This document shows, piece after piece, positions 3,089 through 7,627 of a stretch of DNA of 26,823 nt. Source of the DNA: a virus; the UHGV virus genome UHGV-0250493; one strand, written 5' to 3'. Made by a program: the position numbers and the translations under genes. Each line of letters starts with the position of its first letter. Positions within the stretch are counted from its first letter, which is position 1. The notes below the pieces were generated by a model. That model saw nothing but the letters and a program-made list of their open reading frames with translations. It searched no databases and was not told the origin of the DNA.

Positions 3089-3286
3089 ATGCTAAAACAG
3101 CAGGATATGACAGAAACCGCCAGAGTAGTGTTTAATGAATTAAGCGTTACCGAACCGGCGACAGTCGGGGAGATTGCACAGAATACTTACCTTTCACGCG
3201 AACGCTGCCAGTTAATACTGACCCAGCTGGTTATGGCGGGTCTGGCAGACTATCAGTTCGGTTGTTACAGACGCCTTCCGCAGTGA
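3089..3286 (+). CDS. hypothetical small protein, 65 aa
   Basis: ATG 3089 with AAGGG 8 nt upstream, in frame within track ORF 3002..3286. First ORF after tR'. Start is uncertain (alternative ATG at 3106). Confidence 0.4.
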   Translation: MLKQQDMTETARVVFNELSVTEPATVGEIAQNTYLSRERCQLILTQLVMAGLADYQFGCYRRLPQ

Positions 3287-3436
3287 AGGCTTTTTTATTT
3301 GTGGTAAATGGGCGGCTGGTGGGTGTTAGGGGCACCCACCAGCCATCTGCTCATGCGTTGGGTTCACAAGCAAACCTCAGGCCCACTGCTTTGCGCAAAA
3401 GCAGAATGAGCCTATCAGAGACAGGCTTAATGATCC

Positions 3437-4486
3437 ATGCTTAATACTGTAAAAATATCCAGTTGTGAGTTAATCAACGCCGACTGCCTGGAATTTATCC
3501 GGTCGTTACCCGAAAATTCTGTTGACCTGATAGTCACGGACCCGCCGTACTTTAAAGTGAAGCCTGAGGGCTGGGATAACCAGTGGAAGGGCGACGATGA
3601 TTACCTGAAGTGGCTGGACCAGTGTCTGGCGCAGTTCTGGCGGGTGCTGAAACCTGCCGGAAGTCTTTACCTGTTCTGTGGTCATCGCCTGGCATCTGAT
3701 ATCGAAATCATGATGCGTGAACGCTTCAGTGTGCTGAACCATATTATCTGGGCGAAGCCGTCCGGACGCTGGAACGGATGCAACAAGGAAAGCCTGCGGG
3801 CGTATTTCCCCGCCACAGAGCGCATTCTGTTCGCGGAACATTATCAGGGGCCGTATCGTCCGAAAGATGCCGGGTATGCGGCGAAGGGCAGTGCACTGAA
3901 ACAGCATGTGATGGCCCCGCTGATTTCTTACTTTCGTGATGCGCGCGCGGCCCTGGGGATAACGGCAAAACAGATTGCAGATGCCACAGGAAAGAAAAAC
4001 ATGGTGTCGCACTGGTTCAGTGCCAGTCAGTGGCAGCTACCGAACGAAAGCGATTATCTGAAATTACAGTCGCTGTTTGCCCGGGTGGCAGAAGAGAAAC
4101 ATCAGCGCGGTGAACTGGAAAAGCCCCACCACCAGCTGGTGGATACGTATACGTCACTGAACCGGCAGTATGTGGAGCTGCAGAGTGAATATAAGCATCT
4201 GCGGCGGTATTTTGGTGTGACGGCGCAGGTGCCGTACACGGATGTGTGGACACATAAACCGGTGCAGTTCTATCCCGGGAAACATCCGTGCGAAAAACCG
4301 GCAGAAATGCTGCAGCAGATAATCAGCGCAAGCAGTCGTCCGGGTGACCTGGTTGCAGATTTTTTTATGGGCTCAGGTTCAACGGTAAAAGCGGCACTGG
4401 CGCTCGGGCGTCGTGCGATTGGCGTTGAACTGGAGACCGGACGTTTTGAGCAGACAGTCAGGGAAGTTCAGGATTTAATCGTTTGA
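3437..4486 (+). CDS. DNA methyltransferase (N6-adenine/N4-cytosine class, DPPY motif)
   Basis: 349 aa with the catalytic motif DLIVTDPPYF near the N-terminus and a C-terminal AdoMet-binding-like FFMGSGST motif. No adjacent restriction endonuclease gene. Confidence 0.85.
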   Translation: MLNTVKISSCELINADCLEFIRSLPENSVDLIVTDPPYFKVKPEGWDNQWKGDDDYLKWLDQCLAQFWRVLKPAGSLYLFCGHRLASDIEIMMRERFSVLNHIIWAKPSGRWNGCNKESLRAYFPATERILFAEHYQGPYRPKDAGYAAKGSALKQHVMAPLISYFRDARAALGITAKQIADATGKKNMVSHWFSASQWQLPNESDYLKLQSLFARVAEEKHQRGELEKPHHQLVDTYTSLNRQYVELQSEYKHLRRYFGVTAQVPYTDVWTHKPVQFYPGKHPCEKPAEMLQQIISASSRPGDLVADFFMGSGSTVKAALALGRRAIGVELETGRFEQTVREVQDLIV

Positions 4487-4535: not shown

Positions 4536-4611
4536 GGCCCTTTAGCTCAGTGGTGAGAGCGAGCGACTCATAATCGCCAGGTCGCTGGTTCAAATCCAGC
4601 AAGGGCCACCA
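4536..4611 (+). tRNA. ileZ: tRNA-Ile2 (anticodon CAU, lysidine type; may be annotated as tRNA-Met)
   Basis: Cloverleaf folded by eye: acceptor GGCCCTT/AAGGGCC, D-arm GCTC...GAGC, anticodon CAT at 4569-4571, T-loop TTCAAAT, encoded CCA. Near-identical to E. coli ileX. Confidence 0.85.
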
Positions 4612-4618
4612 TCACATA

Positions 4619-4695
4619 CCGCCATTAGCTCATCGGGATAGAGCGCCAGCCTTCGAAGCTGGCTGCGCGGGGTTCAAGTCCCCGATGGCGGTCCA
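4619..4695 (+). tRNA. argN: tRNA-Arg (anticodon UCG)
   Basis: Acceptor CCGCCAT/ATGGCGG, anticodon stem CCAGC/GCTGG, loop CTTCGAA (anticodon TCG at 4653-4655), T-arm CGGGG-TTCAAGT-CCCCG, encoded CCA. Confidence 0.8.
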
Positions 4696-4708
4696 TTATC
4701 TGCATCAT

Positions 4709-4752
4709 GCGTTGTTAGCTCAGCCGGACAGAGCAATTGCCTTCTAAGCAGC
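4709..4752 (+). tRNA. tRNA-Arg (UCU)-like 5' fragment, apparently truncated (argO-like)
   Basis: Canonical acceptor 5' strand GCGTTGT, D-arm, and anticodon arm with loop CTTCTAA (anticodon TCT at 4743-4745). No T-arm or complementary acceptor 3' strand (ACAACGC) found by eye in the following 100 nt. Confidence 0.4.
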
Positions 4753-5120
4753 TGTGGTTGCACTCCTGTTGTTTCTGGTGGTGATGGTGGACTTCAGCAG
4801 CCGGATAATGTCGGTGCTGTCTGATGGTGTTTTGGTGGCGGGTGTGTGGTTGTTGCTTTCCCGTTGCTGAAAAAGAAAGCATCAGGCGATTAGCAGGGTA
4901 TCAGTTACCCGTTGAAATTTTTAAATACCTCACAATTCCACAGCTTGATGATTGTCTGGCTGCCGGAGAATTTGTTAAAAATTACATCGCATGGTGAATC
5001 CCCCTGTGCGGAGGGGCAATCAGCGAGTAGGTATATGGGATAATCGCGGATTCAGGTGCTGGTACTGAATTCACCGGGAGGCACCCGGCACCATGCAATG
5101 GCACATAGCGCCACTCTCCA

Positions 5121-5155
5121 GCCCCTCTCCGGAGGGGCTGTTTATATTGATTTTG
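5121..5155 (+). terminator. intrinsic terminator in the toxin-slot region
   Basis: Perfect 7 bp stem GCCCCTC-TCCG-GAGGGGC followed by the T-rich tract TGTTTATATTGATTTTG. Confidence 0.5.
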
Positions 5156-5174
5156 TCAGATGTGAGTAAACTCC

Positions 5175-5510
5175 TTATGGACTTTGTTGTTTTAGTCCAT
5201 AAGGACATATTTGCAGAGTGCAACGGTTATTAAAGCATTCATTCAATACGTTATCTGTATTTGTAGGGCATTCCTGGCTGTTTTTGATTAAATTCCAGAA
5301 TGTTTTATTGAATGGCACTACGTTGTAAATGGTTACAGGTAGCACTTTGTTATTGAGCATGATGCCTGTGTGAGTCAGTGTAAATATACTTTCAGGAGGT
5401 AAGAAAGCATCCGATTGATACCAGATTATTAATTTTATTTTACTCCATATGACTGAAAAAGATATTCCGCATGATGGCTGGATAACTGTATCAATCACAA
5501 TCCACTTCAT
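5175..5510 (-). CDS. hypothetical protein, 111 aa, in AT-rich DNA (Cys-rich C-terminus)
   Basis: Minus-strand ORF with ATG at 5510 preceded by AAGGAA 5 nt upstream, stop at 5175-5177. Plausible promoter upstream (TTTACA, about 15 nt, TATACT). Local GC is far below the flanking phage genes. No family recognised. Confidence 0.5.
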
Positions 5511-5770
5511 TTAGTTTCCTTGTTTATGCCTTGCTGGTGATGTTCTGAAAAGTATAAATGATATTTTTGATTGTAAACCATAGAGCAGAATTATTTTTCT
5601 GATGTTGTTTATTGTTTATTTAAATGCAGGGTGGTTTATATCTCGTCTTGTAGTTTATCCATGCATATCTGCTTGATGATGAGGTTTTTATTTAAGGTAT
5701 GGTTTTGTTTTTTTTCTGTATTACATGTCAGGTATTTTAAAGAATCATTTTTCAGATGGTGGAAAGAACC

Positions 5771-7627
5771 ATGGCATTTAAACACTATGATGTTGTCAGG
5801 GCGGCGTCGCCGTCAGATCTTGCGGAAAAGCTGACACATAAACTGAAAGAGGGCTGGCAGCCGTTTGGTAGTCCGGTGGCCATAACCCCTTATACCCTGA
5901 TGCAGGCGATTGCAGCAGAAGGTGATGTGGTCGTCAGTGGTGCAACTGAGCCGGAGTGGTACTACGTCATCGTACTGGCCGGGCAGTCCAATGCCATGGC
6001 TTACGGTGAAGGGCTTCCGCTTCCGGATTCATACGATGCGCCCCATCCGCGCATTAAGCAACTGGCCCGTCGTAACACAGTGACTCCCGGTGGCGAAGTA
6101 TGCGTATTTAACGACATCATTCCTGCTGACCATTGTCTGCATGATGTTCAGGATATGAGTACGATTAACCATCCCCGGGCTGACCTGAGCAAAGGGCAGT
6201 ACGGTTGTGTCGGACAGGGCTTACATATTGCCAAAAAACTGCTTCCGTATATCCCTAATAATGCGGGGATCCTGCTGGTACCATGCTGTCGTGGTGGTTC
6301 GGCATTCACCAAGGGCACGGAGGGGACATTCAGCGAGTCCACGGGGGCCAGTCAGGATTCGGCTCGCTGGGGAGTGGGTAAGCCGTTATATCAGGATCTG
6401 CTTTTCCGCACGAAGGCAGCATTGCAGAAAAACCCGAAAAACGTTTTGCTGGCGATATGCTGGATGCAGGGGGAATTTGACATGAGCGCTGCCACCTACG
6501 CACAGCAACCGGACCTGTTCACGGCCATGCTGAAGCAGTTCCGTACTGACCTTTCCGGATTTAACGCGCAGTGCCATGGCGGCAGTGCTGCAGTTGTACC
6601 GTGGATTTGTGGCGACACGACGTATTACTGGAAAAACACATACGGCACACAGTATGACTCCGTCTACGGCGCGTACAAAAACAGGGAGAGCGACAACGTT
6701 TTCTTTGTGCCGTTCATGACCGACGGTAACGGCAACAACACGCCCACCAACTTACCGGCAGAAGACCCGGATATTGCTGATGCAGGTTATTACGGCGCGC
6801 AATCCCGTAGTAATGGTAATTGGGTATCGTCAAATCGTCCGACACATTTCAGTTCATGGGCGCGCAGGGGCATTATTTCGGATCGCCTGGCAACCGCTAT
6901 TCTGAACGCAGTTGGTCGAACCAGCGCCTTCATCAGCGGTACCGCACCGGAGATTAAACCCTCGCCCGGCGGCGACACGCCATCGGGGCCGTCTGATGGT
7001 GACACATCCGTTCGTACAGTCTCCCTGCTGCCGACAGCCGGAGAGGCTGCTGCGCAGGGCTGGACCATCACCGGCGGCAGTGTTGCGCTGGAAGATGGTG
7101 TGTTTAAGGTTACCAAGCAGAGCAATAAAACCTGGTCCCTGATGCATCCGGTGGATGACGCAGTCTCCCTGCTGACACGGGGTGGCAGACTGAGCTGTAA
7201 GTTTCGACTGTCAGGCGCACTGACCAACAACCAGTTCGGTCTGGGAATTTATCTGTATACCGATGTAGCGTTACCTGACGTCGTGGCGATGACCGGGACT
7301 GGTAACCCGTTCCTGATGTCGTTCTTCACCCAGACCACAGACGGCAAACTGAATCTGATGCATCACAAGAAAGCCGGAAACACAAAGTTGGGCGAGTTCG
7401 GGAATTACAGTAACGACTGGCAGACGCTGGAGCTGGTGTTCACCGCCGGCAGTGCCACGGTTACTCCGAAACTGAATGGAGTGGCTGGCCCGGCATTCCA
7501 GGTCATAAAAGACAGTCTGACACTGGGGCTGAATGCGCTGACGCTGACGGATATTACCAAAAATGCAGCGTATGGCGTTGAGATAGAAAGTCTGGTGCTG
7601 GAGATAAATGCACCGGCATCATCATAA
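5771..7627 (+). CDS. nanS-p: prophage 9-O-acetyl sialic acid esterase (NanS-p type: DUF1737 N-terminus plus SGNH esterase plus C-terminal domain)
   Basis: N-terminal MAFKHYDVV...EGWQPFGSP (DUF1737-like), then the SGNH-type motif VIVLAGQSNAMAYG. Position matches the large ORF downstream of the toxin slot in Stx-type prophages. Start taken at ATG 5771 (GGAAAG RBS) rather than track start 5756. Confidence 0.8.
   Translation: MAFKHYDVVRAASPSDLAEKLTHKLKEGWQPFGSPVAITPYTLMQAIAAEGDVVVSGATEPEWYYVIVLAGQSNAMAYGEGLPLPDSYDAPHPRIKQLARRNTVTPGGEVCVFNDIIPADHCLHDVQDMSTINHPRADLSKGQYGCVGQGLHIAKKLLPYIPNNAGILLVPCCRGGSAFTKGTEGTFSESTGASQDSARWGVGKPLYQDLLFRTKAALQKNPKNVLLAICWMQGEFDMSAATYAQQPDLFTAMLKQFRTDLSGFNAQCHGGSAAVVPWICGDTTYYWKNTYGTQYDSVYGAYKNRESDNVFFVPFMTDGNGNNTPTNLPAEDPDIADAGYYGAQSRSNGNWVSSNRPTHFSSWARRGIISDRLATAILNAVGRTSAFISGTAPEIKPSPGGDTPSGPSDGDTSVRTVSLLPTAGEAAAQGWTITGGSVALEDGVFKVTKQSNKTWSLMHPVDDAVSLLTRGGRLSCKFRLSGALTNNQFGLGIYLYTDVALPDVVAMTGTGNPFLMSFFTQTTDGKLNLMHHKKAGNTKLGEFGNYSNDWQTLELVFTAGSATVTPKLNGVAGPAFQVIKDSLTLGLNALTLTDITKNAAYGVEIESLVLEINAPASS

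Follow-up and report, generated by a model that had tools for sequence, protein, structure and literature searches.

A stretch of 26,823 nucleotides (nt) of the UHGV virus genome UHGV-0250493, referred to here as the window, very probably carries one gene for a small RNA (sRNA) of the STnc100 family (RF02076) in the late region of a lambdoid prophage of Escherichia coli that lacks stx, and this RNA would be transcribed from its own promoter, fold into a pseudoknotted core and act in trans through its 3' end. The same DNA had been described in an earlier note, made from the letters alone, as holding a GT-rich run, a 57-codon open reading frame (ORF) and two similar GC hairpins at 5001-5016 and 5121-5138, which were suggested to represent a structured RNA or leader, or else the residue of the element that once occupied the toxin slot. 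Both hairpins are present as described and correspond to helix P2 and the terminator of a single RNA. The idea of a structured RNA was upheld by an Rfam match of 133.7 bits, while that of a leader was not, given the RNA's own promoter and the minus-strand gene downstream of it.

Identity, promoter and terminator of the STnc100 RNA

The Rfam scan, which had been proposed as a check on the earlier suggestion and covered the whole window, placed STnc100 at 4959-5149 on the + strand (E 1.4e-29) over the full length of the model (positions 1-206 of 206), the curated gathering threshold of RF02076 being 47 bits. A permissive Rfam scan of 4690-5800 up to E 10 gave, besides STnc100, just two chance snoRNA matches, and no riboswitch, ribozyme or cis-regulatory family of Rfam was matched even at this level. 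The model begins 30 nt upstream of the predicted RNA start, inside the promoter, and 0.00 chance occurrences of the 24-nt 5' motif are expected in the window. The element belongs to a known, curated RNA family that is very common in prophages of E. coli and Salmonella. The parts of the gene are as follows.

4952-4981 (+): sRNA promoter, with -35 TTGTCT at 4952-4957, a 15-nt spacer and an extended -10 TGtTAAAAA at 4973-4981
4989-5150 (+): STnc100-family small RNA, about 160 nt long, predicted to start at G4989 and reaching to the U-tract past the terminator
4989-5096 (+): structured core, from the minimum-energy fold and comparative analysis
4989-4996/5089-5096: helix P1, followed by the junction J1/2, AAU(C), at 4997-5000
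5001-5005/5012-5016: helix P2 (hairpin 1), CCCCU/AGGGG, followed by the variable region
5019-5025 with 5057-5063: pseudoknot, AUCAGCG/UGCUGGU
5048-5055/5065-5072: helix P4, followed by the single A5073
5074-5078/5084-5088: helix P5, with loop AGGCA, running straight into the P1 3' strand
5097-5118 (+): mostly single-stranded 3' tail AAUGGCACAUAGCGCCACUCUC, a candidate target-pairing region
5119-5150 (+): intrinsic terminator, with a 9-bp GC-rich stem (5119-5127/5132-5140), loop UCCG and an interrupted U-tract

The RNA is predicted to start at about G4989 from its own sigma-70-type promoter. Seven E. coli-type copies with otherwise diverged flanks have invariant TTG.C and T.TGTTA.AA columns in the promoter, and their RNA start GCATGGTG is invariant or nearly so. 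G4989 aligns with the G of GCAUGGUGAAUCC, where the RNA-seq 5' ends of the enteropathogenic E. coli (EPEC) RNAs PasD2 and PasD1 fall (NC_011601 positions 741157 and 1060260; both RNAs start with GCAUGGUGAAUCC; supplementary table S6, PMC8550237). As well, RpoD ChIP-exo signal has been reported at STnc100 promoters of Salmonella LT2 (PMC10794520).

The terminator core GCCCCUC/GAGGGGC at 5121-5138, which had earlier been called a clean terminator, was flagged by a terminator scan and has a folding energy of -20.3 kcal/mol (z -4.24, with 0 of 200 shuffles as good). The stem extends to nine pairs at 5119-5140 and is followed by UUUAUAUUGAUUUUG; the U-tracts of other copies range from UUUCUUAUGG to U7. 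With a promoter at 4952-4981 and this terminator, an RNA of about 160 nt is predicted, and the fold of 4989-5150 has -69.5 kcal/mol (z -2.9). The tail at 5097-5118, which E. coli prophage copies conserve, is identical in the copies of an Stx1-converting phage and of phage phi296, despite their differing internal variable region. Read from its sequence, the RNA is a stand-alone gene with its own promoter, outside which lie the GT-rich run and, apart from an overlap of nine nucleotides, the 57-codon ORF.

Conserved core and copy history

According to covariation, the first 108 nt of the RNA fold into a compact pseudoknotted multi-helix core. By the 5' motif, 110 distinct copies were gathered from species-representative genomes, and a second block, ACCGGGAGGCACCCGGCACC, which was not part of the search, was found 33-78 nt past the motif in 126 of 128 occurrences. 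The family thus has two near-invariant blocks, GGUGAAUCCCCC..GCGG.GGGG and ACCGGGAGGCACCCGGCACC, which many genera of Enterobacterales and at least 120 viral contigs retain, while the 33-78 nt between them are free to vary. Of the 110 copies, 107 and 108 have canonical bases at the two outer pairs of P1, beside GGUG/CACC, compared with 88-89 after shuffling (maximum 95), and 80 and 69 have them at the next two pairs, compared with 61 and 41. Compensatory changes in P5 are few (CCUGG/CCAGG, UCGGG/CCCGA), and P2 variants of this kind, CCUUUC..GAAAGG and GCG..CGC, occur in the viral set. The folding energy of hairpin 1 alone is ordinary (z -1.0), yet this hairpin is the near-invariant P2 of the family.

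The 6-10 nt directly 3' of P2 are complementary to the P4 loop (loci L005-L124 and L129-L208), and many sequences keep this complementarity with different letters, such as ACUGGAUA/UAUCCAGU, UUUGAUC/GAUCAAA and GAGCCACAA/UUGUGGCUU. The mean duplex energy of the pseudoknot strands is -8.96 kcal/mol with their own partners versus -5.61 +/- 0.21 kcal/mol with permuted ones (0 of 1000 permutations as good). In a second test set, made of viral contigs collected independently by the 3' block, the corresponding energies are -9.50 versus -6.35 +/- 0.31 for the pseudoknot and -8.86 versus -4.69 +/- 0.25 kcal/mol for P4, again with 0 of 1000 as good in each case. The pseudoknot is absent from the structure line of the RF02076 model, covariance models being unable to show pseudoknots. 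In the minimum-energy fold of the window copy all helices are intact. This fold also contains a P3 helix, 5023-5026/5044-5047, which overlaps a pseudoknot strand, is not conserved and was regarded as unreliable; likewise, a CsrA-type GGA loop motif in P2 was set aside, since its completing base varies among A, C and U.

Most close relatives of the segment have two tandem STnc100 genes 467 nt apart, which differ in their variable regions; in the two-copy loci L002 (1764-1957 and 2233-2421) and L062 of E. albertii, both copies score 132-138 bits. The window has a single gene, in which the upstream flank is that of copy 1 and the body that of copy 2, the switch falling inside the shared GCATGGTGAATCCCCCT. 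On the most economical reading of these sequences, the single copy would be the deletion product of recombination between two tandem copies. Its exact junction occurs at 99% identity or more in 145 records. In tail and terminator it does not differ from the copies of Stx phages and of phi296, and its variable region matches that of phage JLK-2012; the STnc100 family evolves as a mosaic.

Relatives of 4925-5150 are present in 2860 of 5426 complete E. coli genomes, which hold them at 2 places in the median and at 12 at most. In the Stx1-converting phage the STnc100 gene lies 79 nt past the stx1B stop codon (176.7 bits), in phi296 it follows an intact argO tRNA and precedes NanS (158.3 bits), and in JLK-2012 it follows tciA-tciB (107.1 bits). 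Tandem arrays are frequent in the family, with 2-3 units spaced 230-470 nt apart (three copies each in L032, L097 and L110), and each unit apparently has its own promoter-like sequence and terminator. An Rfam match to isrI, an Hfq-binding RNA, lies between the STnc100 copies of L110 at 5617-5713, so that families of prophage sRNAs are interleaved there.

Function of the RNA and competing readings

In the lysogen, host RNA polymerase would start at the sigma-70 promoter of the sRNA at about G4989, as promoter conservation and the PasD2 5' end suggest, and would stop at the terminator 5119-5150 to give an RNA of about 160 nt, of a kind seen for homologues by Northern blot and RNA-seq. Its first 108 nt would adopt the covarying core, while the 3' tail and the terminator hairpin likely bind Hfq, by analogy with EcOnc27/sRNA103 and PasD1/2, and pair in trans with host and phage mRNAs. 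In addition, the terminator probably shields nanS-p and the lysis genes from transcription of the tRNA region in the lysogen, and after induction, as is usual in lambdoid phage biology, Q-modified polymerase coming from the late promoter would read through it.

Several homologues have been studied. In strain EDL933, eleven STnc100 copies were found to be transcribed by RNA-seq, and a Northern blot confirmed one of them, STnc100_4 (PMC5331693). The copy downstream of stx2B is known as EcOnc27, an Hfq-binding RNA of enterohaemorrhagic E. coli (EHEC) Sakai, and as sRNA103 of EDL933/86-24 (PMC12711010, PMC5030294), and overexpression of sRNA103 raises espA and fimZ transcripts, apparently indirectly (PMC12711010, PMC5030294). 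The same copy is present in outer-membrane vesicles of Shiga toxin-producing E. coli (PMC12370729), and single-nucleotide polymorphisms in it were among the features predicting haemolytic uraemic syndrome in a machine-learning study, which makes the family clinically interesting (PMC12711010). EcOnc27/sRNA103 occupies the same place on the phage map as the window RNA, between the toxin or cargo slot and nanS-p; the Stx-phage copies differ from it in the internal variable region and the pseudoknot sequence, and the window has no stx upstream.

PasD1 and PasD2 of EPEC E2348/69, which are homologues of EcOnc13, are abundant RNAs that depend on Hfq and have been seen by Northern blot and RNA-seq; RIL-seq gave them many partners, and their 3' tail holds a predicted seed, UGUGAG (PMC8550237). 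The window shares with PasD2 the synteny of DUF3927 gene, sRNA and esterase, and with both the promoter layout, the identical first 13 nt GCAUGGUGAAUCC and the retained P1, P2, pseudoknot and P4. In contrast, PasD has lost the 3' half of P5, has a longer tail with UGUGAG and ends in another terminator, whose U8 tract is clean; the window RNA lacks UGUGAG, and its tail and terminator are not of the PasD type. The alignment restricts the similarity to the promoter, 26 nt at the 5' end and parts of the core, and PasD loci fall below the STnc100 threshold of Rfam. A common ancestor of PasD and STnc100 has been proposed by Zhu, Shabalina and Storz in a preprint (bioRxiv 2026), and our alignment, in which PasD keeps the elements listed above, agrees with this proposal.

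Other known RNAs resemble the window RNA less. AgvB and AsxR (RF02702, RF02703) are also sRNAs of lambdoid prophages in pathogenic E. coli, often encoded near Pas and STnc100 genes, but they are short sponge RNAs lacking a multi-helix core, and neither has an Rfam match in the window. With tRNAs, STnc100 shares a location in or near phage tRNA clusters, a closing helix stacked on a 5-bp hairpin and a 4-5-bp hairpin 3 nt past the 5' strand. Unlike tRNAs, it has neither T-loop nor anticodon arm, carries an extra pseudoknot and is recognised neither by ARAGORN nor by the Rfam tRNA model RF00005. A tRNA-like 3' end was also considered, and N-CCA follows P1 in 24 of 114 copies, almost all of them in the KdgM porin subfamily described below, which gives the idea no general support.

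Several observations weigh against the trans-acting account. Expression as a discrete small RNA is known for the homologues only and would extend to the window copy by analogy, and a simple consensus promoter scan missed the + strand promoter at 4952-4981, so that the promoter call rests on conservation and the PasD 5' ends. The U-tract of the terminator, UGUUUAUAUUGAUUUUG, is interrupted and weaker than in typical Hfq-class sRNAs. For no STnc100 copy has a direct target been validated, and sRNA103 has no complementarity to espA (PMC12711010, PMC5030294); a review that counts STnc100 among the most frequently annotated bacterial sRNAs lists no function for it (PMC9029176). Furthermore, conservation peaks in the structured core and not in a seed, and in some family members (L063, L085) the core lacks a tail and terminator, while others lie upstream of porin genes, all of which fits classical seed pairing poorly.

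The same features suggest that the pseudoknotted core, and not a seed, may be the functional unit, namely a protein-binding, ligand-binding or tRNA-like module that is reused in stand-alone prophage RNAs (often tandem), in tRNA operons and ahead of genes for KdgM-type porins, with a secondary role for the variable tail. This reading, which agrees with ours on the identity of the element and departs from it on mechanism alone, is possible and on balance rather unlikely. It draws on the two near-invariant blocks with their freely varying spacer across Enterobacterales and viral contigs, on the conservation of unpaired loop and junction bases, and on the helices themselves, where covariation is seen in P1, the pseudoknot and P4 and the occasional compensatory variant in P2 and P5. 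The geometry is suggestive as well, since P5 abuts the P1 3' strand like a T arm on an acceptor stem and the P2 stem has 4-5 bp.

Genomic context speaks for such a module too. Among 97 Enterobacterales loci, the nearest downstream ORF is in 17 cases a KdgM-family porin gene, preceded on its own strand by the core at a distance of 150-320 nt, and 17 upstream neighbours encode LuxR/GerE-type regulators; antiterminator Q (10-13 loci) and lysozyme or holin (about 12) mark a prophage context, and tRNA genes occur nearby (within the 8 kb fetched) in about a fifth of the loci. The copies without tail or terminator stand directly upstream of a tRNA. The contexts beside porin and tRNA genes suggest that the core may itself be a functional module. 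On the other side, no partner or ligand is known, ARAGORN calls no tRNA here and the T-loop sequence is absent, CCA after P1 is nearly confined to the KdgM subfamily, and no Rfam riboswitch or ribozyme was matched. Published data on homologues point to Hfq and RNA-RNA chimeras, and the high sequence identity may partly reflect recent horizontal spread. If the module reading were true, the core would be a new class of structured RNA module, of which the window copy is one ordinary instance. In any case, the core is the part under strongest constraint and is found beside tRNA and porin genes as well, which offers a handle on the function of an abundant RNA.

Two of these contexts deserve description in their own right. 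The porin subfamily (L012, L020, L022, L024, L027, L034, L037, L044, L058, L064, L076, L083, L084, L086, L093, L114 and L124) comes from Kosakonia, Klebsiella, Raoultella, Enterobacter and Citrobacter; the core precedes a gene for a KdgM-family porin of about 233 amino acids, often with a LuxR/GerE-type gene upstream. Its cores still score as STnc100 (78-86 bits), and the gap between core and porin gene shows no obvious terminator, some copies having a weak candidate hairpin; the core there may be a 5' leader or a separate sRNA gene. On the E. coli chromosome, nanC, a member of the KdgM family, shares one operon with nanS, of which nanS-p is the phage homologue. In the Pantoea-type loci L063 (about 4797-4975) and L085 (about 455-635), a tRNA-Met gene begins 4 nt past the core, an arrangement that resembles a tRNA operon with the core among its members.

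A cis-acting leader or attenuator, in which an aptamer and the terminator would control nanS-p and the lysis cassette, is improbable. The layout of a conserved multi-stem domain followed by an intrinsic terminator would suit it, as would the esterase start 86-220 nt past the RNA in other phages and the same-strand porin ORF downstream of the core in the KdgM subfamily. In the window, however, the terminator is 606 nt away from nanS-p and the iraM-like gene (5175-5510, minus strand) lies between them; the RNA has its own promoter and is not the leader of the next + strand gene. Each unit of the tandem arrays has a promoter-like element and a terminator, the late genes are driven by Q antitermination, which ignores terminators, and homologues are seen as discrete stable RNAs. 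The P2 3' half GAGGGGC could in principle pair with the terminator 5' half GCCCCUC in a riboswitch-style alternative, but this similarity is a property of E. coli-type copies and is lost in most family members, which have unrelated terminators.

Upstream debris, the 57-codon ORF and the prophage setting

The segment between the tRNA cluster and the sRNA contains the following features.

4709-4750 (+): 5' half of an argO-type tRNA-Arg(UCU), the third tRNA gene, cut after the anticodon loop (alignment)
4754-4870 (+): remnant of a DUF3927/tciB small membrane-protein gene, which is the GT-rich run (Pfam, alignment)
4824-4997 (+): 57-codon ORF, judged non-coding, with ATG at 4824 and TGA at 4995-4997
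4890-4915 (+): hairpin followed by a U-rich run, inside the 57-codon ORF, a possible terminator of the tciB remnant

The GT-rich run, noted earlier at 4770-4860, is real: it has 78% G+T, compared with 51.6% in the whole window, and is the top 91-nt stretch in the 26.8 kb. It is the hydrophobic segment of the small membrane protein TciB. The 38-amino-acid product of the remnant matches Pfam DUF3927 (PF13064) with E 5.8e-11 over profile positions 11-39 of 53 only, while the intact TciB of JLK-2012 (54 amino acids) does so with E 4.8e-20. Relative to that intact gene, the 5' end of the remnant is replaced by tRNA sequence, a G is missing (1-nt deletion) and the 3' end is frameshifted; PGAP annotated a 'DUF3927 family protein, frameshifted' at 4784-4893 in an identical record, while in another record the gene (38 amino acids) was taken as intact. 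In phage phi296, the intact tRNA-Arg(TCT) (L127, 3014-3090) begins with the same 42 nt as stand at 4709-4750, and the two sequences diverge from there on; ARAGORN and Rfam called only 4536-4611 and 4619-4695 as tRNA, and none at 4709-4750 or in the sRNA.

A recombination scar is thus visible at 4709-4870, where argO breaks off after 42 nt and runs directly into a tciB gene that lacks its 5' end and is frameshifted, and this junction also occurs in common two-copy relatives (L002). Former toxin-slot cargo left the GT-rich run and the tRNA half behind as recombination debris, which explains the odd upstream sequence, and the earlier idea of a toxin-slot residue therefore stands for 4709-4870. 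Further downstream, 4871-4942 is identical in JLK-2012. The hairpin at 4890-4915 may terminate the tciB remnant, the fold of 4885-4925 having -9.9 kcal/mol (z -2.3).

That the whole interval is inert recombination debris, including a dead copy of the sRNA, is very improbable. The upstream half tRNA and decayed tciB are indeed debris, the sRNA copy looks like a recombinant of two tandem copies and its U-tract is interrupted. Against this, the copy is full length with promoter, P1, P2, pseudoknot, P4, P5 and terminator all intact, it scores as high as copies known to be expressed, and its junction recurs at 99% identity or more in those 145 records.

The 57-codon ORF was confirmed at 4824-4997 on the + strand, and no Shine-Dalgarno-like sequence lies upstream of its ATG, in line with the earlier remark that it lacks a convincing ribosome-binding site. 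It begins within the tciB remnant in another frame, crosses the terminator-like hairpin and the sRNA promoter, and is closed by the TGA of GGTGAAT at base nine of the RNA, whose first 9 nt it covers. Only near-identical DNA (the window, E. albertii and copy 1 of the two-copy form) keeps the frame that closes at this TGA free of stops for 62 codons, and in all other sRNA copies examined it is open for just 5-33; in JLK-2012 the ATG is ACG and the frame is shifted. The conservation that would mark a normal protein gene, which the earlier note would have counted against its own suggestion, is therefore missing in diverged copies, and the product has no match in Pfam or NCBIfam. The ORF is an accident and not a gene. 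That it encodes a small protein, with the hairpins merely flanking signals, is hardly credible: an ATG-initiated frame is present, intact too in near-identical DNA of E. albertii and other E. coli, but it has no ribosome-binding site, family match or PGAP call in the identical record, it runs across the tciB remnant (out of frame with it), the hairpin and the sRNA promoter, and it collapses in diverged copies.

In the identical record PGAP also placed a pseudogene, 'hypothetical protein, incomplete', at 4985-5104 on the minus strand; it lies entirely within the sRNA, by the extent of the call, and recurs in relatives. This call is probably an annotation artefact of the unannotated RNA. With the false ORF and the false minus-strand pseudogene removed and the RNA named, the annotation of the locus is settled.

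As for the setting, 4696-5760 has a 100% match in the chromosome of E. coli isolate AF58 (NZ_OZ547038.1), and thousands of E. coli genomes as well as Stx-converting phages carry close relatives of it. The setting is the late region of an stx-less lambdoid E. coli prophage, as judged from the annotation of the identical record NZ_OZ547038.1 and of related phages, together with our own ORF, Pfam and NCBIfam checks. The left part reads hokD, DUF968 gene, rusA, Q-type antiterminator, DNA methyltransferase and two tRNA genes; the local order is tRNA(CAU), tRNA-Arg(UCG), half tRNA-Arg(UCU), tciB remnant, STnc100, iraM-like gene on the minus strand, nanS-p esterase, holin and lysozyme. The neighbouring genes are as follows.

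11-166: hokD-type type I toxin ORF of 51 amino acids, at the left window edge, annotated in the identical record
2041-2862: Q-type antiterminator (Pfam Antiterm)
3437-4486: DNA methyltransferase
4536-4611: tRNA with anticodon CAU (ARAGORN, Rfam)
4619-4695: tRNA-Arg(UCG) (ARAGORN, Rfam)
5175-5510 (-): iraM-like gene (NCBIfam IraM subfamily, 162 bits)
5756-7627: nanS-p sialate esterase

In Stx phages, stx occupies the position of the tciB remnant, and the window copy is the sRNA usually encoded right after the toxin slot. Because the same family holds the same map position in related elements, STnc100 marks the downstream border of the stx cargo slot.

Two strong terminator-like hairpins with T6 tails lie 3' of the Q gene, at 2945-2960 and 3273-3290, and a simple scan found no consensus promoter near them. 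The first is about 80 nt past the Q stop codon and is a candidate tR' of the late operon. The RNA StxS of Stx phages, reportedly described by Sy et al. (PNAS 2020), is said to be the short pR'-tR' transcript, which becomes an Hfq sRNA. It resembles the window RNA as a late-region prophage RNA with an intrinsic terminator that Q-modified polymerase reads through, and it is said to be Hfq-associated; in contrast to the window RNA, which has its own promoter, StxS reportedly starts at the late promoter right after Q. A reading of the STnc100 RNA as the pR'-tR' transcript was rejected, since the tR'-like terminator at 2945-2960 lies about 2 kb upstream of it, which makes the two RNAs distinct.

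The iraM-like gene had no match in a Pfam search. It is convergent with the STnc100 sRNA and represents a prophage-borne homologue of IraM, an anti-adapter that antagonises RssB and stabilises RpoS. Between this gene and nanS-p lies a 245-nt AT-rich spacer (5511-5755), in which divergent promoters are presumed.

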